Shown here piece by piece: positions 767 through 17,377 of a DNA stretch of 32,000 bases. The notes beneath the pieces are model-generated. The model searched no databases, had not been told where the DNA came from, and saw nothing but the letters and a program-made list of their open reading frames with translations. Both the position numbers and the translations under genes were made by a program. The stretch is from Microcystis aeruginosa NIES-843 (GTDB taxonomy: Bacteria > Cyanobacteriota > Cyanobacteriia > Cyanobacteriales > Microcystaceae). Position 1 is the stretch's first letter. Each line of letters starts with the position of its first letter. The stretch covers positions 2,130,001 through 2,162,000 of the forward strand of contig NC_010296.1 in assembly GCF_000010625.1 (NCBI RefSeq), given 5' to 3'.

Positions 767-776
767 ATGGCCGAAT

Positions 777-803
777 CCCCCTAAAACTAGGGGGAATTTT
801 TAT
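777..803 (+). terminator. Rho-independent terminator downstream of prs
   Basis: Stem ccccCTA (777-783), loop aaac, stem TAGgggg (788-794), then a T-run (797-801). It starts 11 nt after the prs stop. Confidence 0.65.
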
Positions 804-1040
804 ATTTAGCCCTTTTCTGTGGAAATGGGGTGGGTTAATGGCATTATCAACCACTCCATCTCGCAGAGAGAGGGGGAAGGTGTAGAGAGAGAATCGATCG
901 GAAAATTAAATATAGCAATTCTTAAACTTCACTGGTTATTTCACAGTCTTGCCGTACAATGGAGATGCAGAACAGTTCTTCCGATAGTTATTGTGTTCTA
1001 TTAGCTAAAAACGCTTAATATAGGAGATAAATAGCCTAAA

Positions 1041-1856
1041 ATGTCCAAAGTGGTCGATATTAACAATCCACTGATCGATCCAACTCCTCCAGAGGTTCAC
1101 TTAACTAATGCACCTCTAGTGTGTGTGCTTGGACAAGTACGGTTCCCACAAATTCTGGCCGTTGAGGATAGGAAATTTGTGACTCCATTTCAGGAAGCTA
1201 TTAGAACAAAGTATCCTAAGTTACGGCAGGAACGAACTTATCAATTAACTTTTGATAATCAAGAAAAAGATGCCGTCAGATCTCAAGCTGAGGTTATCTG
1301 GCAATTTACAGATGCCAATAATCATTGGCGAGTCTCATTAGCGTCTAATTTTGTAGCCTTAGACACATCAAAGTATGTCAGTCGTCAGGACTTTTTAGAG
1401 CGAATGAGAGAAGTTTTAACTGCGGTTAATGAACATATTCAACCCAACCTTGTTGAGCGAATCGGTATTAGATATGTTGATCGTATTGAGGGTATTGATG
1501 TAGGGAATATTTCTAATTTAGTCAGATCAGAACTGATAAATATCACCGCGTCAACATTTCAAGAACATATTCTTCAAAGTTATAATGAATCTCTGTTTCA
1601 GTTACCTAATACCCAAGGGACACTTGTAGCAAGATGGGGATTGATTCCCAGTAACGCTACTTTTGATCCAAATGTCCTTGAACCGATTGATCAACCGAGT
1701 TGGTTTCTTGATTTAGATATGTCTATTTCAGAGAATCAAGAATTTGACGTTGAAAAAATTTTAGAGGATGCAAAACGATTTTCTGAAAGAATTTATACTT
1801 TTTTTAGATGGTCAGTAACCGAAGAATTTCTAAGACGCTTTGGAGGTGAACAATGA
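1041..1856 (+). CDS. Uncharacterised 271-aa protein, TIGR04255-family-like
   Basis: Long ORF with AGGAG upstream. The N-terminal pattern ...NAPLVCVLGQVRFPQ... and the ~270-aa length resemble the TIGR04255 uncharacterised family as I remember it. This was not verified by HMM. The region is AT-rich relative to prs. Confidence 0.7.
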   Translation: MSKVVDINNPLIDPTPPEVHLTNAPLVCVLGQVRFPQILAVEDRKFVTPFQEAIRTKYPKLRQERTYQLTFDNQEKDAVRSQAEVIWQFTDANNHWRVSLASNFVALDTSKYVSRQDFLERMREVLTAVNEHIQPNLVERIGIRYVDRIEGIDVGNISNLVRSELINITASTFQEHILQSYNESLFQLPNTQGTLVARWGLIPSNATFDPNVLEPIDQPSWFLDLDMSISENQEFDVEKILEDAKRFSERIYTFFRWSVTEEFLRRFGGEQ

Positions 1857-2527
1857 GTAACTTAGTGATTGAACGTTCAAATACTTTTGGCTCAATCAAT
1901 CCTCAAAAACGATTTAGAATGATTCCTGGTATTGCGGAATCCAGTACCATTGGCTATGATAATCTTGCCGCTCAAAAGTTACTAGCGATTTCAGAAAGAA
2001 CTAATAGCGAAATAGTTGTTCCGAAGCACAATCCTCATCTTTTTCAAGATAGTCAAAAAGCGATTAATGAACTCAGAAAAACCAGTGGACTGACCTGGGA
2101 GCAAGTTGCCAAACTATTTAATGTTTCACGTCGAAGCATTCATTTTTGGGCAAGTGGACAGCCTCTAGCTAGTGACAATGAGGAGAAATTAAATAGATTA
2201 CTGGGAGTGATTAGATATATTGATCGAGGAAGTGCAAGTCTTAACCGTAAGTTATTATTGAATCCTAATGCTGATGGGGAACTGCCTTTAGACCAATTAA
2301 TATCAGGAGAATATGATAAAGTAAGAGAGAATCTTGGGCGTGGTAATCCACCCAAAAGACCGCAATTAAGACCTTTGTCTGAGGAGGAGAGTGAGCTTCG
2401 TAGGCCTTTACCACCGGAGATATTAATTGATGCTTTACAAGATTCTATTCATCATGATGTTGGACGTTCTAGACCTGCTAAAACATTGAGGAGTGGTCAA
2501 AATCGCAGTGGAAAGCAAACAGATTGA
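1853..2527 (+). CDS. HTH protein, Xre/MbcA/ParS-antitoxin-like (HTH plus DUF2384-like segment)
   Basis: ATGA start/stop overlap with the upstream gene, and GGAGGTG lies 5 nt upstream of the ATG. HTH-like LTWEQVAKLFNVSRRSIHFWASGQ is followed by LLLNPNADGELPLDQLISGEYDKVRENLGRG, which resembles the toxin-binding domain of Xre/MbcA/ParS antitoxins. The C-terminal tail is basic and disordered. Confidence 0.6.
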   Translation: MSNLVIERSNTFGSINPQKRFRMIPGIAESSTIGYDNLAAQKLLAISERTNSEIVVPKHNPHLFQDSQKAINELRKTSGLTWEQVAKLFNVSRRSIHFWASGQPLASDNEEKLNRLLGVIRYIDRGSASLNRKLLLNPNADGELPLDQLISGEYDKVRENLGRGNPPKRPQLRPLSEEESELRRPLPPEILIDALQDSIHHDVGRSRPAKTLRSGQNRSGKQTD

Positions 2528-3365
2528 TCTCATTAACAATGAGTTACAAACATGGTGTCAAGGGGATTTTGTTTTAGGAGAACAGTGGTTTGTTCATCGA
2601 TTTAATCCTCAATTTCCTCTTACACCTGATTCTACAAAGCAAGATGCTGAAGAAAATGATCTTGTAGAATCGGAAGTAAAAGGTCTAGTTGTTGTTACAC
2701 AAACTTGCGATATTGTCCGTTCTTGTTGTGAACGTCCTTTTCTAGAAGTTGTTCCTCTGGTAGAAATTGAAGCTGAAAAAATTAGTGAGATAAAAAAAGG
2801 CAGACGACCTCAATACGTTTACATTGAAGGAGTTGCCAAACTAAACTTAGTAGCTGATCTCGATAGGGTAATGACAGTCGAAAAAGCATTGATCTTACAA
2901 TGGAATCGTCAACAGGGTTGTGTAACTGATCAAGAAAAAAGACTCTTAAGACAAGCGATAGCAAGAAAAAGAATTCGTTTTGCTTTTCCAGATGATTTTG
3001 TTCAATTTGTCAGTAAACTTCAAAACCGGATGCAAGATAAGCATACTAAACAAAGTGATGAAGGGGAAGCCTTACGAGCTTTGCGGGAAATTAGAGTTAG
3101 TGCAAGACCTTCGTGGAATGATGAAAATCCTGAACTTATGTTTTATTTTATTCGTGAAGAAGAACAAGAGGACTATAATGACATTGGATGGGACAAATGG
3201 CTAGACAAGTGGTTAAATTTATTACCTAACTCTGGACGTTTTCAGTCTGATGGTTTAGTAGTAAGCTTAGAAGATATGACCGCAAAAGATTATGTTGAGA
3301 GTGATCAACTGGATCTTGAGCATTTGTCTATGGCCCAAAGCAATATTGAAAATTTAGATTTATAG
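2493..3365 (+). CDS. Orphan 290-aa protein, no family recognised (candidate effector)
   Basis: Long ORF overlapping the upstream gene by 35 nt if GTG 2493 is used. GTG 2508 is an alternative start, so the start is uncertain. Conspicuous motif GLVVVTQTCDIVRSCCERPFLEVVPLVEI. The C-terminus is acidic. No motif is known to me. Confidence 0.65.
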   Translation: MVKIAVESKQIDLINNELQTWCQGDFVLGEQWFVHRFNPQFPLTPDSTKQDAEENDLVESEVKGLVVVTQTCDIVRSCCERPFLEVVPLVEIEAEKISEIKKGRRPQYVYIEGVAKLNLVADLDRVMTVEKALILQWNRQQGCVTDQEKRLLRQAIARKRIRFAFPDDFVQFVSKLQNRMQDKHTKQSDEGEALRALREIRVSARPSWNDENPELMFYFIREEEQEDYNDIGWDKWLDKWLNLLPNSGRFQSDGLVVSLEDMTAKDYVESDQLDLEHLSMAQSNIENLDL

Positions 3366-3625
3366 AAAACTATAATTACAAAAGTTTTCCAAATATTGTC
3401 GCAATTCTGATACTGGTGAGATACAAAGTCTCCAGTTTTAGGGAAGAGGGAGAAACAAGCTGATGGCTAAAAAACTGATAACTGATATTAGTTACTGTAC
3501 CTCATAATACTGAAAAATCTCTAGTCATTTCGATCGGGATTGAGAAGACCAATATTAGACCAGTGGAGGCTTTCACCGGTCAAGAATGTCTAGAATTTAT
3601 TGAGAATGACTAAATTTTCTTGACA

Positions 3626-4228
3626 TTAATTCTGATTTATGGCAGCGTCGGGGTTGTCAAGTCCTCCCAGACGATCGAAGGGCCAAAAACGCACCACGGC
3701 GCGACCGATTAAGTTTTCCCGGGGAACGAAGCCCCAAGCGTGGGAATCATAACTATTATTGCGATTATCGCCCAAAACCAAATATTGATCGGGGGGAACT
3801 GTCACCGGTCCGAAAGTATAATTAGGTTCTTCGGCGATATACTTTTCCGCTAAAACTTTACCGTTGACGTGAACTAGACCGTTTTTGACTTCCACCTTAT
3901 CCCCCGGCAGTCCAATCACCCGTTTAATAAAAGCATCCTGAAAATTTTGAGCTTTCAGGGCGGCTGTCGGACTAAAAACCACTATATCACCCCGTTCTGG
4001 CTTCTGAAAATGATAGCTAACTTTCTCGATAATTAGGCGATCGTTAATCTGGAGAGTGGGTTCCATGGAAGAAGAGGGAATATAACGGGCCTCGGCCACA
4101 AAAGTGCGGATGCCAAAAGCCAAAATTCCAGCCGTGACAATGGTTTTAACTGCTTCTAGCCAAGGGTTTTCTTGGGGGACGGGAGGAGGAGAGGGTTTTT
4201 CGGATTTATGGTTCAAGCTTTCAGCCAT
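3626..4228 (-). CDS. lepB: Signal peptidase I
   Basis: N-terminal TM segment, catalytic Ser box SSSMEPTL, Lys box [10 protein letters not shown], and [16 protein letters not shown] box. Confidence 0.95.
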
Positions 4229-6881: not shown

Positions 6882-7553
6882 CTATAGAGAGGGAGATTTA
6901 ATAGCAAAATGTAGTATATTCGTTTCTATTTCAGTTATGGTTTCTGGAAATCGCTGATTGTTAAAATTGATCTGCTCGGAATATAGATGATAGGCTGTAT
7001 TGTAAAAGTTACGAAGGATAAAAGCAATAAATATGCTGGGTGTTAAAGGGGAGGACACTGGAATTCGGCAGTTTTTGAATTGTCCTAGGGTGAGATGACA
7101 TCTGGGGTGATGAATCTCTTGAAAATTATCAGGATCGTAATCAAATCTAATCGGTACAGCTACAATATTTTTGTCGATAATATCGGCAAATATCTCATCT
7201 TCTTCATATAGTTCTGGCTCATTTTGAAAAGATTCTAAATAAGGGGATGAGAAGAAAGCTAGTCTATGGGATAATAACTGCGATCCTTGGAAGCGATAAA
7301 GTAATTGAATCAAGGCTCCATCAATCATTTTAATATTATAATTCTTACCGCGATCAAGCTCATCATAAATATCTTGATAGGCAACATTTTTTAGGGCAAT
7401 GGATAAGTCGGAACTATTGGCATAGCTAATCTCAGAAATATTTTGACTCAATTTATTCAAAGTCGGAAAGTTCTGCTGACTTGATAATCCTACTTCTATC
7501 AATTTAGCCGTTAAATTTTTAACATCTTTAAAGATATTCTGAACATTAAGCAT
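6882..7553 (-). CDS. 223-aa partner protein of the upstream helicase (uncharacterised; possibly DUF2290-type)
   Basis: ORF starts 7 nt after the helicase stop on the same strand and is very AT-rich. I recognise no catalytic motif. The DUF2290 suggestion rests only on gene-pair architecture. Confidence 0.6.
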   Translation of the reverse strand: MLNVQNIFKDVKNLTAKLIEVGLSSQQNFPTLNKLSQNISEISYANSSDLSIALKNVAYQDIYDELDRGKNYNIKMIDGALIQLLYRFQGSQLLSHRLAFFSSPYLESFQNEPELYEEDEIFADIIDKNIVAVPIRFDYDPDNFQEIHHPRCHLTLGQFKNCRIPVSSPLTPSIFIAFILRNFYNTAYHLYSEQINFNNQRFPETITEIETNILHFAIKSPSL

Positions 7554-7560
7554 TTCTTAA

Positions 7561-9657
7561 CTATTCTTGGAATATTTTGATAATTTCGTTTTTTTCATCT
7601 GATGAAAATTCTATACTTTTTAACTTGGCAATTAATTCTTGCTTTTCCCTGTCATTTTTATATCTCTTGGTATTAAGAGTATCTCGATAAACCTTCTTCA
7701 TTTGTTGAAGTTCTTCGGGGGTTGGATAGGTAAACTCAAGAGCAAAATTTCTCGATTTAATTTCCTGAAATTCCCTCTCTAAAGCTTGCATATTTGCTCC
7801 ATAACCAATAACTCTTAACCAAGCTTTACTTCTAGTCATCGCTGTAAATAAAATATTGCGGTTACTAGCAATTTGTGAACCAGATAAACATTCTTGAGCG
7901 TTAATGAAATAAACCATTGCCGCTTCATTGCCTTTTGCACGATAAATCTGTGTAAAAGCAATCGAGTTTTCTTGAAAAAACTCATCGGGAGAAGATGTGC
8001 TGCCTGCTAAATGAGAATTAATATTTTTTGTAAATAACATTTCTCTAGCTTTTCCAAAAACGTTGCGAGCATTTTTAGGTATTGGATGGATAACCATAAT
8101 ATCTTGGCATCTTAATTCATCTTCCTTGAGATTCTTGGCAATTTGTTCCACTAGCCATTCAAATTGCTCCTGATTGTTATCGAAAGATTTAAAGTTGATA
8201 ATATCATCGATAGAAGAATGTTCTTCAAGGAATTTAGGACTGGTTTTGGGGGTTCTAATCAGTTTAACAAATTCTCCTGATTTTAATTCTCCTTCTTCAA
8301 CCTCATAACCAATATCTTGCCATAATTGACGATTATCAAACATTTGAATTAGTCCCTGTGGATAATAAACTCCAAAACCTAGAGCATGAGCAGAGGACAG
8401 AATAGGACGAGAATTTCTGTAACAAGTATTTAAAACCACATCTTGTTGGGGTTCGCTGGGTAAATTCTCCAATTTAACTCTAGGATTACCATGATTATCA
8501 TTTCCAAAAATAACTTCGGGAGAATGCATGACTTTACTATTTAAGCTTTGCAACTCATCATAGGCATAAACTAAACGTTTATCATCTTTCAAGATTTCAT
8601 AGCAGAGTCTTAAGAAGTCTTGAGGAAAATCTTGAGCTTCATCAATTAAAATAAGATCATAATATTGATGAAATTTTTTAATCTCTCGGAAGGCTTTTTG
8701 ACAGGCAAAGTCAAAAGGTTCTTCATGCGAATATGTTAGGTTGTCTGCTTGACTAAAACCTAAATATTCAATATTATGTCGTTTACATAGCTCATAATAA
8801 ATTCCTTCTATCTTAGGACTTCCCCACGCATGAATAATTTTTACTTTTTCCCAGTCTGGTTCGGAATTTTTATGCTCATAACTAAACCGAGTAATTAAAT
8901 CTTTGTATTGATCCTTTAACGAGCGTGTATAGAAGGTAACAGCAATATTCCAATCGGGATGAGTTGCATGAAGATAAGCTACTTTCAGCGCTAAGACAAT
9001 TGTTTTTCCCGAACCTGCTAAACCTCTAATTCTTTGTACACCTTTAGTGGTTTCTAAAACAGCCTTATTTTGAGTTTCATCAAGATTAGCGATAGAATCT
9101 TCTAATTTTTTTAACTTTGCTCCCCTAGAATCTCGTTTAACAACATAACTGCGAGCGTCTTTTTTTCTAATGGTTGTAACAGCTTGTATAACTGAGTTGA
9201 CTTTCTCGAAATATTCAGAATCATTGCCTTGACATTTCTTGATAAAATTATCAAGATCTTCATCTTTAATAAGAACAGGATATTCCTCTCGGTTAATTGC
9301 TTCTGGATAATTATTCCAAATCGGTGCATAGGTGGCTACAGAAATGCTAACCATTAGCTTTCTTTTTTGAACAAGCTCTTTATAAGACAGCAGTTTTGCT
9401 TCTAACTTGGTTATGCTCTCGTCTTGAGTGCCTTCAATATCCAAATCATAATTTTTTCCCTCATCAATATTAAAAATAATAACCCCTTGCTGACGAGAGA
9501 CTAATAGAGCATCAATTTGATATCCTCCTTGGGGAGTTCCAATAATAGGATAGCCGATATACAATGTTCCCTCTATATCTGTTCTTTCCTCAAAATATTT
9601 AGCTAATCTTTGAGAAGATACAGGTTTAGCTGAAGAACCGCGAATAACGTTAACCAT
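7561..9657 (-). CDS. Superfamily-1 (UvrD/DUF2075-like) helicase with an N-terminal nuclease-like (NERD/PD-(D/E)xK-like) region
   Basis: Walker A GLAGSGKT (~9003-9026), motif II LILIDEAQDF (~8632-8660), CYRNSRPIL, IYRAKGNEAAMVYFI, LFTAMTRSKAWLRVIG. The N-terminus ...YQIDALLVSRQQGVIIFNIDEGK... resembles a D...(D/E)xK core, but this is tentative. Confidence 0.85.
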   Translation of the reverse strand: MVNVIRGSSAKPVSSQRLAKYFEERTDIEGTLYIGYPIIGTPQGGYQIDALLVSRQQGVIIFNIDEGKNYDLDIEGTQDESITKLEAKLLSYKELVQKRKLMVSISVATYAPIWNNYPEAINREEYPVLIKDEDLDNFIKKCQGNDSEYFEKVNSVIQAVTTIRKKDARSYVVKRDSRGAKLKKLEDSIANLDETQNKAVLETTKGVQRIRGLAGSGKTIVLALKVAYLHATHPDWNIAVTFYTRSLKDQYKDLITRFSYEHKNSEPDWEKVKIIHAWGSPKIEGIYYELCKRHNIEYLGFSQADNLTYSHEEPFDFACQKAFREIKKFHQYYDLILIDEAQDFPQDFLRLCYEILKDDKRLVYAYDELQSLNSKVMHSPEVIFGNDNHGNPRVKLENLPSEPQQDVVLNTCYRNSRPILSSAHALGFGVYYPQGLIQMFDNRQLWQDIGYEVEEGELKSGEFVKLIRTPKTSPKFLEEHSSIDDIINFKSFDNNQEQFEWLVEQIAKNLKEDELRCQDIMVIHPIPKNARNVFGKAREMLFTKNINSHLAGSTSSPDEFFQENSIAFTQIYRAKGNEAAMVYFINAQECLSGSQIASNRNILFTAMTRSKAWLRVIGYGANMQALEREFQEIKSRNFALEFTYPTPEELQQMKKVYRDTLNTKRYKNDREKQELIAKLKSIEFSSDEKNEIIKIFQE

Positions 9658-11659: not shown

Positions 11660-12039
11660 CCCTGGGAACTCCGTTTAATTACATGAACTTCATAACCCTC
11701 ATTTTCCTTGTATTCGGTGACGATAGTTTTCGGGGTAAAGGTAATGAGAAATATATCCCAAAAAGCTAATCTGGGTGAACGTTTACCCGAAATTCTCTCG
11801 AAAATAATTTCTTCTTCCTTGTGGGGACGAAAGATGATTTCAAACGCTTCCTTATAAGCTTGGGGAATAGCCATAAAGACTTTAATTATTACCTTTAACC
11901 AATCGCCTAAAGTTTCGCTAGAGGCGAAATTACGGGGCAAAAGAAAAGCAATAGCAACCCCGATCATAATATTAGCAGGGGTGAAATTAGCGGTGAGCAA
12001 AAACCACATAGTTAAACGCAGAATTATATGTCCGATCAT
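11656..12039 (-). CDS. mrpE: Antiporter subunit E
   Basis: MnhE-like, with an ITFTPKTIV motif (compare ITLTPGT). I prefer ATG at 12039, which forms an ATGA overlap with the mrpD stop. The ORF-track start at 12054 is a TTG. Confidence 0.8.
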   Translation of the reverse strand: MIGHIILRLTMWFLLTANFTPANIMIGVAIAFLLPRNFASSETLGDWLKVIIKVFMAIPQAYKEAFEIIFRPHKEEEIIFERISGKRSPRLAFWDIFLITFTPKTIVTEYKENEGYEVHVIKRSSQG

Positions 12040-13469
12040 GCGAATACCATCCAAAATAATAGAACTAACATTATACTCATCATACCGACGAGATTATCAA
12101 ATTGTTCCCAGGCTCGCGATAATTTTATGGATAACTTTTTGAAAACTCCCAGATATAACCACCACCCGGCACCGATGACAGCTAAAGCTTTGATAATATT
12201 GGGTAGATTATAAGCTTCAACATAGACGGCATTGGATAAAAATAGGGCGGCAAGGAGCAGAATTATTGCTGTCCAGAAACCGATAGTTAGCTTCTGTTTG
12301 CTTTCGCCACCTGCGTGGGGTAAAAAGATAAATTTAGCAAAGGAAATCGCCGTCCCCACCGCCACAAGATTGATCATAATCTCTTGCCAAGGTAATAAAT
12401 TTTTCATCGTTAACGCTTTCGCCCCAAAACCGGATAATAAGGGGAATCCAGAGATGGAAAAACTGGCGATAACAATAGCAATCCAGAGGGAATTAGGGAG
12501 CGATTGTTGCTGTAATTCTTTAAAATTGCGACTGGGTAAAACTCCCACTAACAGAAATAGGGAAGATTTAACTAATCCGTGGGTAAGGGTATAAAAACCG
12601 CTCACCGGTGGGGCAGCCAAAATAAAACCCAGCTGCACGATCGTGCTAAAGGCTAACATCCGCTTGCTATCCTTTTCAAAAATCATATAGGGTACACCAA
12701 AAATCGCCGTTAGCACCCCGAAAAGCCGAATTAGTCCATCCAAATCCTCTAGGATTAAAGCACAGCGCAGGAGGGGAAAAATGCCCGCTTTTACCACCAC
12801 CCCTGACATCAGCGCCGAGACAGAGGTTTCCGATTCCGAGTGTGTCATCGGTAGCCATAATCCCGAGACAAAGATTCCCCCTTTGACTAATAATCCCATG
12901 AAGATTAAAGCCAAGGCTTCGGGAGGTGCGTCCTTTAAACCAGCAAAAGCAAAGGAATTATTGGCTTTATAGACTAAAACTGCGCCAATAAGGTAAAATA
13001 ACATCGCCACATTGCTGATAAACAGATAACGCAGGGCAACCCAGAGAGAGCGATCGCTGCGAGGATAGGCAATCACCAGAAAAGCGGCAATACTAATTAC
13101 TTCTAAGGCAACGTAAACGCTAATAAAATCTTCACAGACGAAGACAGAATTAATGCTGCCGTGGAGAATGATAGCTTGGGCGTAAAAAAAGGCGGTTTTG
13201 CTACTTTCCCAATTATAAAAGATCACCGCCATGGTCACCAGGGCATTGGTGAGGATAAAATAGGCACTTAACTGATCGGCTACCAGTTTCACGCCATAAT
13301 TATCCAGTAGGTTGAGGGTTATGGGGGCGGATTGGCCTAATAGAAGGAAGGAATGGCCAGAGGATAATATGGCGGCGAGAGCAAGATATTTGTCTAATCG
13401 CGGCAATAAATAGATGATAAAGCCGATCAAAAAGGGTAAACTTATCCAAGCGATCGTTAAAGTATTCAT
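12036..13469 (-). CDS. mrpD: Antiporter subunit D / NuoN-M-like proton-pumping subunit, paralogue c (477 aa)
   Basis: Polytopic protein with the NADH-quinone oxidoreductase chain M/N-like core (WLPMTHSESETSVSALMSGVVVKAG). The central ~0.7 kb is identical to the other two copies. The C-terminal ~110 aa are distinct. Confidence 0.9.
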   Translation of the reverse strand: MNTLTIAWISLPFLIGFIIYLLPRLDKYLALAAILSSGHSFLLLGQSAPITLNLLDNYGVKLVADQLSAYFILTNALVTMAVIFYNWESSKTAFFYAQAIILHGSINSVFVCEDFISVYVALEVISIAAFLVIAYPRSDRSLWVALRYLFISNVAMLFYLIGAVLVYKANNSFAFAGLKDAPPEALALIFMGLLVKGGIFVSGLWLPMTHSESETSVSALMSGVVVKAGIFPLLRCALILEDLDGLIRLFGVLTAIFGVPYMIFEKDSKRMLAFSTIVQLGFILAAPPVSGFYTLTHGLVKSSLFLLVGVLPSRNFKELQQQSLPNSLWIAIVIASFSISGFPLLSGFGAKALTMKNLLPWQEIMINLVAVGTAISFAKFIFLPHAGGESKQKLTIGFWTAIILLLAALFLSNAVYVEAYNLPNIIKALAVIGAGWWLYLGVFKKLSIKLSRAWEQFDNLVGMMSIMLVLLFWMVFA

Positions 13470-13813
13470 GGTGTGTTATTTTTTTCTATCTCGCTGCTGT
13501 CGAGGGTGGGGTTATCTTTGGCTAATTTCATCACTCCCACCAGCATTAACGCCTGAATGGAAAAACCGATGACGATCGCTGTTAAAATCACTGCTTGGGG
13601 TACAGGATCGGCGTAATTTTGCTGTTTAACTGTACCGAGGATGGGAGTAAATAAACCGTCACGGGAAGAAATCACCACATAGTAGGCGATAACGCCCGTA
13701 CTCATGACATCCATGGCGATAATCTTCATGATTAAGTTTTTTTTCAGGAATGTTCCTAAAAATCCGCACAAAACGGTGGCGAATACAAACAACTCTAGCA
13801 GGGGAATCGTCAC
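13466..13813 (-). CDS. mrpC: Antiporter subunit C (NuoK-like), copy 1
   Basis: 115 aa with three TM segments. ADPVPQAVILTAIVIGFS motif typical of MnhC/NuoK. 4-nt overlap with the downstream mrpD. Confidence 0.88.
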   Translation of the reverse strand: MTIPLLELFVFATVLCGFLGTFLKKNLIMKIIAMDVMSTGVIAYYVVISSRDGLFTPILGTVKQQNYADPVPQAVILTAIVIGFSIQALMLVGVMKLAKDNPTLDSSEIEKNNTP

Positions 13814-13859
13814 TGGGCTTCTTGATTAGATTTGGTTATGAGTCAAAATACTTTTTCTA

Positions 13860-13889
13860 ATTATCCTCGATCGAGTCCCAATTGATCAA
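13860..13889 (-). promoter_or_regulatory. Promoter-like core upstream of mrpC copy 1
   Basis: Minus-strand reading is TTGATC (13889-13884), an 18-nt spacer, then GATAAT (13865-13860). It lies inside a ~50-nt block conserved at four sites in the window. Confidence 0.4.
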
Positions 13890-13956
13890 AAAATTCTCAG
13901 GCTTTGCCGCTTCTTCCTTGAATCATCGGTGAATTGGTGAAGATCTATAGTTACTA

Positions 13957-15423
13957 TTAGCTAAAAGCTAGGAATGAGGGAGCTAATTGGGCTAGAATTG
14001 AAAGGAACAACAGCATTAATATAACAGCCATCATACCGACGAGATTATCAAATTGTTCCCAAGCTGTTGATAATTGTAAGGACAGCTTTTTAAATATCCC
14101 TAGATACAACCCCCAACCGATAGCAATAATCCCTAAAGCTTTGCTGATATTTCCCAGATTGTAGGCATCGAAATAGACAGCATTGGCTACAAATAAGGCA
14201 GTTAACAATAGTATTATTCCTAACCAACCACTCAAGGTTAACTTTCTCCCAGTGGTAACTTTTGCGTGGGGTAAAAAGATAAATTTGGCAGTGGCGATCG
14301 CTGTACCTACGGCTGCTAAATTGATGGCTACCTCTTGCCAAGGTAATAAATTTTTCATCGTTAACGCTTTCGCCCCAAAACCAGATAATAAGGGGAATCC
14401 AGAGATGGAAAAACTGGCGATAACAATAGCAATCCAGAGGGAATTAGGGATCGATTGTTGCTGTAATTCTTTAAAATTGCGACTGGGTAAAACTCCCGCT
14501 AATAGAAATAGGGAAGATTTAACTAAACCGTGGGTAAGGGTATAAAAACCACTGACTACCGGGGCGGCTAAAATAAAACCCAGCTGCACGATCGTGCTAA
14601 AGGCTAACATCCGCTTGCTATCCTTTTCAAAAATCATATAGGGTACACCAAAAATCGCCGTTAGCACCCCGAAAAGCCGAATTAGTCCATCCAAATCCTC
14701 TAGGATTAAAGCACAGCGCAGGAGGGGAAAAATGCCCGCTTTTACCACCACCCCTGACATCAGCGCCGAGACAGAGGTTTCCGATTCCGAGTGTGTCATC
14801 GGTAGCCATAATCCCGAGACAAAGATTCCCCCTTTGACTAATAATCCCATGAAGATTAAAGCCAAGGCTTCGGGAGGTGCGTCCTTTAAACCAGCAAAAG
14901 CAAAGGAATTATTGGCTTTATAGACTAAAACTGCGCCAATAAGGTAAAATAACATCGCCACATTGCTGATAAACAGATAACGCAGGGCAACCCAGAGAGA
15001 GCGATCGCTGCGAGGATAGGCAATCACCAGAAAAGCGGCAATACTAATTACTTCTAAGGCAACGTAAACGCTAATAAAATCTTCACAGACGAAGACAGAA
15101 TTAATGCTGCCGTGGAGAATGATAGCTTGGGCGTAAAAAAAGGCGGTTTTGCTACTTTCCCAATTATAAAAGATCACCGCCATGGTCACCAGGGCATTGG
15201 TGAGGATAAAATAGGCACTTAACTGATCGGCTACCAGTTTCACGCCATAATTATCCAGTAGGTTGAGGGTTATGGGGGCGGATTGGCTAAATAGAAGGAG
15301 AGAATAGGCGAGAGAGATAATAGTGGCGGCGAGAGCAAGATATTTGTCTAATCGCGGCAATAAATAGATGATAAAGCCGATCAAAAAGGGTAAACTTATC
15401 CAAGCGATCGTTAAAGTATTCAT
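13957..15423 (-). CDS. mrpD: Antiporter subunit D, paralogue b (488 aa)
   Basis: Same family as above. The last ~440 aa are identical to paralogue a. The first 33 aa and the central tract are identical to paralogue c. Confidence 0.9.
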   Translation of the reverse strand: MNTLTIAWISLPFLIGFIIYLLPRLDKYLALAATIISLAYSLLLFSQSAPITLNLLDNYGVKLVADQLSAYFILTNALVTMAVIFYNWESSKTAFFYAQAIILHGSINSVFVCEDFISVYVALEVISIAAFLVIAYPRSDRSLWVALRYLFISNVAMLFYLIGAVLVYKANNSFAFAGLKDAPPEALALIFMGLLVKGGIFVSGLWLPMTHSESETSVSALMSGVVVKAGIFPLLRCALILEDLDGLIRLFGVLTAIFGVPYMIFEKDSKRMLAFSTIVQLGFILAAPVVSGFYTLTHGLVKSSLFLLAGVLPSRNFKELQQQSIPNSLWIAIVIASFSISGFPLLSGFGAKALTMKNLLPWQEVAINLAAVGTAIATAKFIFLPHAKVTTGRKLTLSGWLGIILLLTALFVANAVYFDAYNLGNISKALGIIAIGWGLYLGIFKKLSLQLSTAWEQFDNLVGMMAVILMLLFLSILAQLAPSFLAFS

Positions 15424-15767
15424 GGTGTGTTATTTTTTTCTATCTCGCTGCTGTCGAGGGTGGGGTTATCTTTGGCTAATTTCATCACTCCCACCAGCAT
15501 TAACGCCTGAATGGAAAAACCGATGACGATCGCTGTTAAAATCACTGCTTGGGGTACAGGATCGGCGTAATTTTGCTGTTTAACTGTACCGAGGATGGGA
15601 GTAAATAAACCGTCACGGGAAGAAATCACCACATAGTAGGCGATAACGCCCGTACTCATGACATCCATGGCGATAATCTTCATGATTAAGTTTTTTTTCA
15701 GGAATGTTCCTAAAAATCCGCACAAAACGGTGGCGAATACAAACAACTCTAGCAGGGGAATCGTCAC
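15420..15767 (-). CDS. mrpC: Antiporter subunit C, copy 2 (identical to copy 1)
   Basis: The 115-aa translation is identical to 13466-13813, at an exact +1954 offset. Confidence 0.88.
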   Translation of the reverse strand: MTIPLLELFVFATVLCGFLGTFLKKNLIMKIIAMDVMSTGVIAYYVVISSRDGLFTPILGTVKQQNYADPVPQAVILTAIVIGFSIQALMLVGVMKLAKDNPTLDSSEIEKNNTP

Positions 15768-15813
15768 TGGGCTTCTTGATTAGATTTGGTTATGAGTCAA
15801 AATACTTTTTCTA

Positions 15814-15843
15814 ATTATCCTCGATCGAGTCCCAATTGATCAA
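15814..15843 (-). promoter_or_regulatory. Promoter-like core upstream of mrpC copy 2
   Basis: Exact +1954 copy of 13860-13889. Confidence 0.4.
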
Positions 15844-15910
15844 AAAATTCTCAGGCTTTGCCGCTTCTTCCTTGAATCATCGGTGAATTGGTGAAGATCT
15901 ATAGTTACTA

Positions 15911-17377
15911 TTAGCTAAAAGCTAGGAATGAGGGAGCTAATTGGGCTAGAATTGAAAGGAACAACAGCATTAATATAACAGCCATCATACCGACGAGATT
16001 ATCAAATTGTTCCCAAGCTGTTGATAATTGTAAGGACAGCTTTTTAAATATCCCTAGATACAACCCCCAACCGATAGCAATAATCCCTAAAGCTTTGCTG
16101 ATATTTCCCAGATTGTAGGCATCGAAATAGACAGCATTGGCTACAAATAAGGCAGTTAACAATAGTATTATTCCTAACCAACCACTCAAGGTTAACTTTC
16201 TCCCAGTGGTAACTTTTGCGTGGGGTAAAAAGATAAATTTGGCAGTGGCGATCGCTGTACCTACGGCTGCTAAATTGATGGCTACCTCTTGCCAAGGTAA
16301 TAAATTTTTCATCGTTAACGCTTTCGCCCCAAAACCAGATAATAAGGGGAATCCAGAGATGGAAAAACTGGCGATAACAATAGCAATCCAGAGGGAATTA
16401 GGGATCGATTGTTGCTGTAATTCTTTAAAATTGCGACTGGGTAAAACTCCCGCTAATAGAAATAGGGAAGATTTAACTAAACCGTGGGTAAGGGTATAAA
16501 AACCACTGACTACCGGGGCGGCTAAAATAAAACCCAGCTGCACGATCGTGCTAAAGGCTAACATCCGCTTGCTATCCTTTTCAAAAATCATATAGGGTAC
16601 ACCAAAAATCGCCGTTAGCACCCCGAAAAGCCGAATTAGTCCATCCAAATCCTCTAGGATTAAAGCACAGCGCAGGAGGGGAAAAATGCCCGCTTTTACC
16701 ACCACCCCTGACATCAGCGCCGAGACAGAGGTTTCCGATTCCGAGTGTGTCATCGGTAGCCATAATCCCGAGACAAAGATTCCCCCTTTGACTAATAATC
16801 CCATGAAGATTAAAGCCAAGGCTTCGGGAGGTGCGTCCTTTAAACCAGCAAAAGCAAAGGAATTATTGGCTTTATAGACTAAAACTGCGCCAATAAGGTA
16901 AAATAACATCGCCACATTGCTGATAAACAGATAACGCAGGGCAACCCAGAGAGAGCGATCGCTGCGAGGATAGGCAATCACCAGAAAAGCGGCAATACTA
17001 ATTACTTCTAAGGCAACGTAAACGCTAATAAAATCTTCACAGACGAAGACAGAATTAATGCTGCCGTGGAGAATGATAGCTTGGGCGTAAAAAAAGGCGG
17101 TTTTGCTACTTTCCCAGTTATAAAAAATAACTGCCATCGTCACCAGGGCATTAGTGAGGATAAAATAGGCACTTAACTGATCGGCTACCAGTTTCACGCC
17201 ATAATTATCCAGTAGGTTGAGGGTTATGGGGGAGGATTGGCTAAATAGAAGGAGAGAATAGGCGAGAGAGATAACAGAAGTAATTAAGGACAGATATTTA
17301 GCCCAGCGAGACAGTAAATAGCCAATAAAGCCGCTCAAAAAGGGAACGACTATCCAAGCGATCGTTAGAGTATTCAT
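15911..17377 (-). CDS. mrpD: Antiporter subunit D, paralogue a (488 aa), first gene of the array with no mrpC in front
   Basis: Identical to paralogue b up to nt 17116. The 5' ~260 nt diverge, first synonymously and then with amino-acid changes (MNTLTIAWIVVPFLSGFIGYLLSRWAKYLSLITSV). Confidence 0.9.
   Translation of the reverse strand: MNTLTIAWIVVPFLSGFIGYLLSRWAKYLSLITSVISLAYSLLLFSQSSPITLNLLDNYGVKLVADQLSAYFILTNALVTMAVIFYNWESSKTAFFYAQAIILHGSINSVFVCEDFISVYVALEVISIAAFLVIAYPRSDRSLWVALRYLFISNVAMLFYLIGAVLVYKANNSFAFAGLKDAPPEALALIFMGLLVKGGIFVSGLWLPMTHSESETSVSALMSGVVVKAGIFPLLRCALILEDLDGLIRLFGVLTAIFGVPYMIFEKDSKRMLAFSTIVQLGFILAAPVVSGFYTLTHGLVKSSLFLLAGVLPSRNFKELQQQSIPNSLWIAIVIASFSISGFPLLSGFGAKALTMKNLLPWQEVAINLAAVGTAIATAKFIFLPHAKVTTGRKLTLSGWLGIILLLTALFVANAVYFDAYNLGNISKALGIIAIGWGLYLGIFKKLSLQLSTAWEQFDNLVGMMAVILMLLFLSILAQLAPSFLAFS

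Follow-up and report, generated by a model that had tools for sequence, protein, structure and literature searches.

Antitoxins of the Xre/MbcA type are encoded in pairs (mbcA-mbcT, parS-parT) in which the toxin gene lies downstream of the antitoxin gene. In surveys of toxin-antitoxin (TA) systems, Xre antitoxins of the COG5642 type are paired with RES toxins, and the published partners of MazF toxins are AbrB, ribbon-helix-helix, PHD or winged helix-turn-helix (HTH) antitoxins, not proteins of the Xre/COG5642 type (PMC2701414, PMC3879964). A validated anti-phage system, type II Gabija, also employs MazF-like domains as effectors (PMC13069673), a precedent that counts in favor of the proposal made here. 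We analyzed a three-gene cassette located between prs and lepB in a 32,000-nucleotide (nt) stretch of the Microcystis aeruginosa NIES-843 genome (NC_010296.1, positions 2,130,001 to 2,162,000; hereafter the window, to which coordinates refer unless another locus is named). Its genes, in the order P1-P2-P3, encode a TIGR04255 protein (P1), an Xre-type HTH protein (P2) and a third protein (P3) with a predicted MazF/PemK-like domain. We propose, with moderate confidence, that the cassette is an autoregulated tripartite type II TA-type conflict module in which P2 would be the antitoxin and repressor, P3 the toxin and P1 an accessory protein. Because the surveys pair MazF and the COG5642-type Xre antitoxins with other partners, the combination of P2 with P3 is non-canonical.

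All three open reading frames (ORFs) lie on the plus strand and overlap, and at their greatest length they span 1041-1856 (271 amino acids, aa), 1853-2527 (224 aa) and 2493-3365 (290 aa). A preliminary description of this DNA, made from the sequence, had called them coupled genes of the same strand; the ATGA overlap of P1 and P2 and the GGAGGTG in front of it were read directly (Table 1), and this 4-nt overlap is also present in Crocosphaera, Stanieria and Pseudanabaena, genera in which the gene overlaps are kept. The 35-nt overlap that it gave for P2 and P3 (2493-2527) is correct for the longest ORF, which begins at GTG 2493. However, the likely start of P3 is GTG 2508, which gives an overlap of 20 nt, because both the N-termini of homologues (e.g., MENNQIDLINNELEKW in Crocosphaera) and independent gene calls of 285 aa agree with it. 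The compact, co-directional operon, with overlaps of 4 and 20 nt and the HTH gene upstream of the presumed toxin gene, has the layout of a type II TA system.

P2 is composed of a variable N-terminus (residues 1-65), an HTH (72-107; nt 2066-2173), an MbcA-like region (79-161; nt 2087-2335) and a conserved tail (approximately 175-205). A profile of the P2 family retrieved MbcA (6fkg_C) from the Protein Data Bank (PDB) at E = 0.0047, and hhalign of the family against the MbcA segment gave a probability of 93.5% (E = 2.2e-7) over 77 columns with 36% identity. The alignment includes P2 residues 137-164, where PLDQLISGEYDKV is matched with PADLVRDGEYQRV of the C-terminal helix of MbcA, and homology to this solved protein was thus found across both the HTH and the C-terminal helix. 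The earlier suggestion that P2 joins an HTH to a toxin-binding segment of the Xre/MbcA/ParS kind was therefore correct as to the segment, which is the one that aligns with MbcA, but no curated threshold was reached. HTH_3 matched P2 at E = 1.8e-4, and HTH families matched 47 of 50 family members, in each case below threshold. The Xre-like HTH domain PF20432 scored 14.2 bits against a gathering cut-off of 25.8 and was sub-threshold in 35 of the 50 members (best E 5e-4), while NF049845 (Xre_ParS_antitoxin) scored 15.7 bits against a cut-off of 90, with weak matches in 25 of the 50 (best E 5e-4). Neither the C-terminal toxin-binding domain PF09722 nor the middle domain PF23125 was listed for P2 of the window at E <= 1, and both were outside the 25 families matched most often among the 33 that the 50 members hit; PF23125 was seen only at E = 0.086, in a Vibrio P2 homologue. 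Because PF20432, PF09722, PF23125 and NF049845 were never reached, P2 is best regarded as a remote relative of MbcA and not as a member of these families. In addition, three short Thr/Ser-rich motifs (TSAxG, GTS and TTSG), spaced about 20 residues apart within residues 1-65 (nt 1853-2047), are conserved across phyla and could be docking or modification sites.

P3 had been described as an orphan and as one of the possible non-canonical effectors, but it is neither an orphan nor an entirely new type of effector. A search of a 5.8-billion-protein set found more than 2,000 homologues, clustering at 50% identity gave 1,169 representatives, 304 of them at E <= 1e-30, and the predicted structure gives P3 an N-terminal domain of the classical MazF/PemK fold. 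By sequence, P3 had no match in Pfam, NCBIfam, PADLOC or PHROGs, or in the PDB by phmmer and profile search. An AlphaFold2 model calculated from 136 diverse sequences had a pLDDT (predicted local distance difference test) of 93.4 and a pTM (predicted template modeling score) of 0.86; a shallow alignment of 40 cyanobacterial sequences gave an unusable model with a pLDDT of 54. The model consists of a MazF/PemK-like N-terminal domain (residues ~14-135; nt 2547-2912) and a C-terminal alpha/beta domain (~140-275; nt 2925-3332). Its nine best Foldseek matches in the PDB were all MazF toxins, from S. aureus, M. tuberculosis, B. subtilis and E. coli (probability 0.98-1.00, E 8.8e-5 to 1.4e-2, target-normalised TM-score 0.46-0.59, ~95-144 columns), and matches in the viral library BFVD were named "PemK-like protein" and "Endoribonuclease". 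As modeled, the N-terminal ~135 residues thus have a MazF/CcdB fold. The C-terminal domain, which carries a basic RKRxRFAFPDDF patch, gave low-probability structural matches only. Residues conserved throughout the family are Q18, G19, D20, G59, T/S64-Q-T/S-C67-D68, R71, D117, K126 and R157, and the invariant motif TQTCD is encoded at nt 2697-2711. Thus, it appears that P3 combines a MazF/CcdB-type fold with a conserved site of its own. Resemblances to MazF motifs that had been noticed by eye (QGD to MGD, TQT..PFxEV to CTTQ..PFEVV and MTVEK to RTIDK) were rejected, given the hhalign probability of 0.2% described below.

The pattern of gene disruption among approximately 90 close loci was suggestive, although not decisive, in marking P3 as the costly gene. 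P3 was disrupted while P1 and P2 were intact in six loci (L016, L047, L056, L082, L091 and L109). In a Synechococcales metagenome-assembled genome (MAG; L082, 3872-4983), an IS630-type element comprising an HTH ORF and a DDE_3 ORF, and flanked on both sides by ATTTAAATTG, lies inside P3 at residues ~51/52. In Microcystis contig VYKR01000018.1 (L109, 1986-3339), approximately 1.35 kb containing an IS605 OrfB/TnpB-like gene of 405 aa replaces window positions 2438-3275; the replacement covers the end of P2 and most of P3, and this locus is a natural P3 knockout. A frameshift in a near-identical Microcystis strain (L091; Logan SRR28374904, 3420-4278) splits P3 into 164 and 106 aa and leaves P1 and P2 intact. 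P1 was frameshifted once (L077), with P2 and P3 intact. It was absent from Anabaena lutea FACHB-196 (L040, 3754-4257), where an unrelated low-complexity ORF of 167 aa stands in its place and overlaps the start of an intact P2, followed by an intact P3, which suggests that the first gene of the trio can be swapped. Disruption of P2 alone was found in none of the ~90 loci. By our calculation, the probability that at least six of eight disruptions would fall in P3, if they were proportional to gene length, is ~0.03.

A tandem direct repeat upstream of P1 overlaps the putative -35/-10 region (Table 1). The repeat is the only match to its pattern in the 32-kb window, and no match was found in 100 shuffles. 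ACTTCACAC-N3-ACTTCACAC occurs upstream of P1 in 27 of 29 cyanobacterial loci, with TAnnAT 9 nt later. Across all phyla, 70 of 72 loci have the shorter pattern TTCAC-N7-TTCAC no more than 250 nt upstream of P1, as compared to seven matches on both strands of the remaining 1.37 Mb. In Gemmatimonadota loci the second repeat is situated 17 nt before TATGAT, that is, at the -35 position, and even the remote trios found on plasmids keep a tandem repeat of 12-bp period with a related core (Table 1). Host promoters are not conserved between phyla. For a DNA motif that accompanies the cassette and diverges together with it, the best explanation is therefore a role as operator for the HTH protein that the cassette itself encodes. 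We consequently treat the TTCACA repeats as a putative P2 operator. In some Microcystis strains the leader that separates the repeats from the start of P1 is longer by ~120 bp, the additional DNA lying at a point that corresponds to window position ~999 (L102:2691-2811, L106:3337-3458 and L109:4778-4898).

The trio is widespread. When one genome per species was scanned, a single strict peptide pattern retrieved 313 loci, and the best 80 of these were from Cyanobacteria, Gammaproteobacteria (e.g., Thiocapsa), Myxococcota, Acidobacteriota, Gemmatimonadota, Planctomycetota, Deinococcota and Rokubacteria. The neighborhood comparison proposed in the preliminary description showed wide co-occurrence: in all but one or two of the close loci with sufficient upstream sequence for the order to be judged, P1, P2 and P3 follow one another in a constant order, all on one strand, and the genes that flank them differ among Crocosphaera, Stanieria and Pseudanabaena. 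All 12 TIGR04255 genes found on plasmids were followed by two further genes, which in 10 of the 12 were an HTH gene and a relative of P3, in part a very remote one. Such remote trios are carried by plasmids, including conjugative ones, of Rhizobium, Sinorhizobium, Sphingomonas, Kocuria, Paenarthrobacter, Vibrio and Acinetobacter. The third gene of Vibrio furnissii pMT14 matched P3 with an hhalign probability of 95.9% and has the motif SQSCD, and that of the Paenarthrobacter plasmid has LTQTCD. In viral DNA the operon was met in a few prophages; a full trio was present in six IMG/VR viral contigs, and P3 was not found in isolated phage genomes. In a bulk scan of 120 nearest-neighbor ORFs, the genes next to the trio were mostly housekeeping genes, with a few RosmerTA, AbiL-like and Uma2 genes. 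Plasmid trios were often near relaxase, type IV coupling protein (T4CP), ssb or primase genes.

In Microcystis the cassette forms part of an inserted accessory segment, as had been proposed from its boundaries, the prs hairpin and the convergent lepB, both of which were found in place (Table 1). The prs-lepB junction of related strains, a comparison that the preliminary description had called for, was examined in 14 Microcystis metagenome contigs found by scanning for the 3' end of prs. Eight of them contain an empty site, in which window position ~808 is joined straight to ~3614 (...TATATTTA|TTTTCTTGACA, or ...GGGGGAATTTTTATATTTA|TTTTCTTGACATT...) and lepB directly adjoins the prs terminator. 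The other six comprise four with the cassette, one with the cassette but with most of P3 replaced, and one that is rearranged; the cassette was present in every contig encoding the identical LepB. Because empty sites exist in related Microcystis, the insertion is directly verified, and the insert is polymorphic, not universal. It begins 13 nt past the prs terminator hairpin, which the contigs with an empty site still have. Its ends showed neither terminal inverted repeats nor a target-site duplication, and no recombinase gene was found in the insert. The hexamer TTTTCT occurs at 813-818, 4 nt inside the left end, and at 3615-3620, immediately outside the right end; it may be microhomology from the insertion or deletion event, or chance.

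The composition of the insert also differs from that of its surroundings. Its GC content is 37.5%, compared to 41.6% in the rest of the window, in keeping with the earlier remark that the block is richer in AT than prs and lepB. The contrast is clearest in GC at third codon positions (GC3), which is 23-26% in the three cassette genes versus 53% in prs, 45% in lepB and 44% in the next gene. The block had also been said to lack the HIP1 site GCGATCGC, which is true, but the absence is not significant by itself because an insert of this kind would lack the site with a probability of 0.32; the 12 sites of the whole window all lie at or beyond 5881, and prs and lepB are likewise without them. Of the suggested comparisons of GC content and HIP1 density, the first thus gave a contrast and the second gave no strict depletion. 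The half-sites GATCGC/GCGATC are more telling, since none is present in the insert as against 2.1 per kb elsewhere (~6 expected), and this supports depletion in the insert. We conclude that the cassette was horizontally acquired and that its GC3 is foreign to the host genome.

Table 1. Positions of the cassette, its genes and its regulatory features in the window, with the related repeats of remote plasmid trios.
Feature	Position	Strand	Remarks
Inserted accessory segment	809..3614		~2.8 kb; ends good to 1-2 nt; present/absent among Microcystis strains
prs intrinsic terminator hairpin	776..795	+	8-bp G+C-rich stem followed by a T-run; flank, not part of the cassette
Tandem direct repeat TTCACT-N6-TTCACA	928..945	+	12-bp period; putative P2 operator overlapping the promoter; TTCACTGGTTATTTCACA
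-10-like hexamer TACAAT	955..960	+	9 nt downstream of the second repeat
P1	1041..1856	+	TIGR04255-family protein, 271 aa
P1/P2 translational-coupling junction	1844..1856	+	Shine-Dalgarno GGAGGTG at 1844-1850; ATGA start/stop overlap at 1853-1856
P2	1853..2527	+	Xre-type HTH protein, 224 aa; proposed antitoxin and autorepressor
P3	2508..3365	+	285 aa (290 aa from the alternative GTG start at 2493); proposed toxin/effector
lepB (signal peptidase I)	3626..4228	-	Convergent core flank gene outside the cassette; product with Peptidase_S26
Repeat of the Rhizobium plasmid trio			TTTCACTTTAC x2
Repeat of the Kocuria and Paenarthrobacter trios			TGTGAAG x2, opposite orientation
Repeat of the Vibrio and Acinetobacter trios			TGTGTAA x2

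These results are consistent with the following mechanism. One promoter would drive P1, P2 and P3 as a translationally coupled operon. P2 would bind through its Xre-type HTH to the promoter-overlapping tandem TTCACA repeats and repress the operon, while its MbcA-like C-terminal region and conserved tail would hold P3 inactive. When P2 is lost or displaced, P3 would arrest growth, most plausibly by acting on RNA, through the MazF/PemK-fold domain with its invariant Q18, D20, T64-Q-T-C-D68 and R71. P1 would be a nearly obligatory third subunit that is dispensable for neutralisation of P3, most likely a sensor or adaptor that modulates or triggers the P2-P3 switch. We infer DNA binding by P2, neutralisation of P3 by P2, the toxicity and target of P3 and the role of P1. 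The findings that count for the proposed module are the overlapping genes, the conservation of the trio, the varied flanks and empty sites, the foreign GC3 and the repeat motif, together with the homology of P2 to MbcA in an antitoxin-then-toxin order, the MazF fold, the selective breakage of P3 and the loss or replacement of P1 at two loci (L040 and L077) where P2 and P3 are intact. Its biological role may be addiction and stabilisation of mobile DNA or abortive phage defense.

Several observations weigh against this proposal. The link to MazF comes from a predicted fold: PemK_toxin (PF02452) gave no match to P3 at E <= 1, and hhalign of the P3 family against an alignment of MazF, EndoA and Kid gave a probability of 0.2% (the EndoA sequence of this alignment was verified against 4me7_A). 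The conserved polar residues of P3 differ from the catalytic Arg/Thr pair of MazF, with no obvious equivalent of the catalytic Arg, and CcdB, which is not a nuclease, has the same fold as MazF. On sequence comparison P2 lies below every curated threshold for Xre/MbcA/ParS antitoxins, and P1 could itself be an effector. The disruption count involves small numbers, and some of the disruptions are possibly errors of MAG assembly. At one locus (L041), the only one with P3 and without P2, an IS4 transposase stands in place of the promoter and of the genes upstream, and P3 is apparently intact. Finally, no clear defense-island signal was seen around the trio; the few defense-type neighbors are partly confounded by ABC-F ATPases and have no background rate for comparison.

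An alternative reading is a non-toxic accessory operon of mobile elements, with an HTH regulator that controls two proteins of another kind, serving for instance element regulation, exclusion or nucleic-acid processing, and with no TA relation. None of the three proteins reaches the threshold of a toxin or antitoxin family, their neighbors are heterogeneous and mostly housekeeping genes, plasmid trios often stand beside relaxase, T4CP, ssb or primase-type genes, and SH3-like barrels such as the MazF/CcdB fold also serve in binding. We nevertheless consider such an operon unlikely, because P2 has an antitoxin-like architecture and homology to MbcA, all nine of the best PDB matches of P3 are MazF toxins, and P3 decays selectively. 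The sporadic, horizontal distribution with its presence/absence polymorphism and the promoter-overlapping putative operator, typical of autoregulated TA operons, likewise favor a TA-type module.

Within such a module, the roles of P1 and P3 could be exchanged. P1 had been described as TIGR04255-like, and it proved to be a full-length member of this NCBIfam family, with 181.4 bits against a curated cut-off of 30 (E = 2.6e-53; residues 21-268 on model positions 2-252 of 252). Searches of Pfam, PADLOC and the PDB found no match to it, even when the family profiles were broadened, its PHROGs match was to a PHROG of unknown function only, and it showed no internal duplication and no relation to the domains of P2 or P3. 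Literature searches that included aliases found no paper mentioning the TIGR04255 family. In nearly all loci the trio starts with P1, whose conservation equals that of P3 and includes many invariant Arg, Trp, Tyr and Asp residues. These properties would suit a toxic effector restrained by P2, with P3 as a sensor, adaptor or second effector, and an enzymatic toxin is compatible with P1, for which the profile searches of the PDB and Pfam gave no match. P1 is also the constant partner, in that distant P1-like genes of a Rhizobium plasmid and of Burkholderia phages are accompanied downstream by unrelated genes, and once a P1-like gene stands beside a HigBA pair in the gpA-gpQ accessory region (PMC9122126). 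However, we think it rather improbable that P1 is the toxin. The gene downstream of the antitoxin gene, the position of the toxin gene in Xre/MbcA-type pairs, is P3, which is also the gene with a known toxin fold and the one most often inactivated, and the loss or replacement of P1 at L040 and L077 shows no sign of selection above that for loss of P3.

The resemblance of P2 to MbcA/ParS antitoxins, and the fact that the cassette abuts prs while ParT modifies Prs, might point to a canonical Xre-RES (MbcTA/ParST-like) system that targets NAD+ or Prs through a cryptic RES ADP-ribosyltransferase neighbor, but this is very improbable, since P1, P3 and 31 P1 homologues gave no RES (PF08808) signal at E <= 1, as the preliminary description had expected in calling neither neighbor RES-like, the P1 and P3 family profiles retrieved neither MbcT nor ParT from the PDB, the fold of P3 is like that of MazF and not of an ADP-ribosyltransferase, and adjacency to prs is specific to Microcystis, the cassette having other flanks in other genera.

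For the tripartite TA-type module that we favor, no named TA or defense family was matched by the trio in PADLOC-DB v2.0.0, Pfam, PHROGs or the literature. PADLOC, a defense library named in the preliminary description as a check, gave no match to P1 or P3 and only a chance-level HTH match to P2 (mad1 at E = 0.036). That description had spoken of an unmatched three-component module with an Xre-type regulator. It was right in that the trio matches no named defense or TA family, and the wide co-occurrence of the three genes is in its favor, but it was mistaken about the supposed orphan, which is a member of a large family with a toxin fold. Literature searches for three-component systems that combine MazF and Xre proteins likewise found no description.

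Side observations concern TIGR04255-like genes whose two downstream neighbors have no relation to P2 or P3, in a plasmid of Rhizobium sp. CB3060 (L114:3471-5644) and in Burkholderia phage vB_SBP21 (L123:4477-6507). Their third proteins are alike (HVGVLYRYGD...HLWWHHRL and HVGIAFHTPKDG...HLAWHRQL), and to judge from these sequences the arrangement may be a second type of TIGR04255-led trio. The P1-like gene of the Rhizobium plasmid adjoins a multiubiquitin-ThiF-DUF6527 cluster and IS110. In P2-like phages of Burkholderia pseudomallei, the P1-like trio has the replication/integrase genes on one side and the portal gene on the other and lies next to a HigBA-like pair; this position matches the gpA-gpQ anti-phage hotspot of P2-like phages (PMC9122126). 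A broader scheme, which we put forward as possible though doubtful, would make TIGR04255 the constant trigger-sensing subunit of widespread, unrecognised tripartite conflict systems. The effector pair would be exchangeable, being either the MbcA-like HTH protein with the MazF-fold toxin or the second pair of the Rhizobium plasmid and the Burkholderia gpA-gpQ hotspot. Such systems would carry their own operator across phyla and would act in abortive infection or mobile-element exclusion, not in simple addiction.

Two other loci of the window, both on the minus strand, were noted. Positions 6882-9657 (GC 32-35%) encode a protein of 223 aa that matches DUF2290 at E = 4e-70, together with a UvrD-like helicase of 698 aa; a "Helicase + DUF2290" pair was reportedly among the anti-phage systems of Rousset et al. 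in 2022. This pair, only 3.5 kb from the cassette, is a second accessory or defense locus, and its bearing on a defense role of the cassette is circumstantial. Positions 12036-17377 contain three tandem paralogues (477, 488 and 488 aa; period ~1,954 bp) of the NdhD/MnhD-like Proton_antipo_M family, which adjoin MnhB/MbhD/MbhE-like genes. The regular HIP1 spacing in the window (1244, 707, 1247 and 707) is due to this array, which Tandem Repeats Finder, run with a maximum period of 500, missed.

If the proposed module is correct, it would provide the first functional context for TIGR04255, and the P3 family, with more than 1,000 clusters at 50% identity and no Pfam, NCBIfam, PHROG or PADLOC model, would be a divergent two-domain MazF-fold toxin. 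The MbcA/ParS-type antitoxin scaffold would not be confined to RES toxins, and the cassette would carry a portable, putative repressor-operator pair conserved from Cyanobacteria to Actinobacteria. For Microcystis, the cassette would belong to the strain-variable elements by which phage susceptibility and genome plasticity are shaped in bloom populations. What is new here is a widespread, unannotated tripartite module resembling type II TA systems, which joins a proposed, non-canonical pair of antitoxin and toxin to a new accessory family and a portable putative operator.

Of the known systems, the Xre-RES pairs (MbcA-MbcT of M. tuberculosis, ParS-ParT and COG5642-COG5654) share with the cassette an Xre-type HTH followed by a helical C-terminal region with a P-x-D-L-x3-G-E-Y-x2-V helix, an antitoxin gene that is upstream of and overlaps the presumed toxin gene, and a sporadic, plasmid-prone distribution (PMC2701414). 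Unlike these pairs, the cassette has no RES toxin, and its downstream gene encodes a MazF-like fold with an extra domain. P2 differs from their antitoxins in its variable N-terminal extension of ~65 residues, its long conserved tail and its scores below all curated cut-offs. A third gene, TIGR04255, is nearly always present, and the putative operator is a tandem direct repeat, not a palindrome.

The MazEF, PemIK and Kis-Kid systems resemble the cassette in the MazF/PemK fold predicted for the N-terminal domain of P3, in the position of the P3 gene downstream of, and overlapping, the gene for a DNA-binding partner, and in an apparently autoregulated operon. In contrast to their toxins, P3 lacks sequence-level similarity to MazF, is ~2.5 times larger owing to its added C-terminal alpha/beta domain, and has different conserved residues (QGD, TQTCD and R157); moreover, the cassette has three genes. 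In type II Gabija (PMC13069673), GajB is accompanied by the MazF-like GajC, and the MazF-like fold is similarly the presumed effector of a multi-gene conflict system. The partner there is a UvrD helicase, whereas here it is an HTH protein with TIGR04255, and GajC is a split MazF domain. With the tripartite TA systems HipBST, omega-epsilon-zeta, PaaR-PaaA-ParE and toxin-antitoxin-chaperone (TAC), the cassette has in common a compact, coupled and horizontally distributed operon of three genes, which encode a known or proposed toxin, an HTH protein and one more protein. It differs from them in that no protein family is shared and that P1 is the first gene and not a downstream chaperone.

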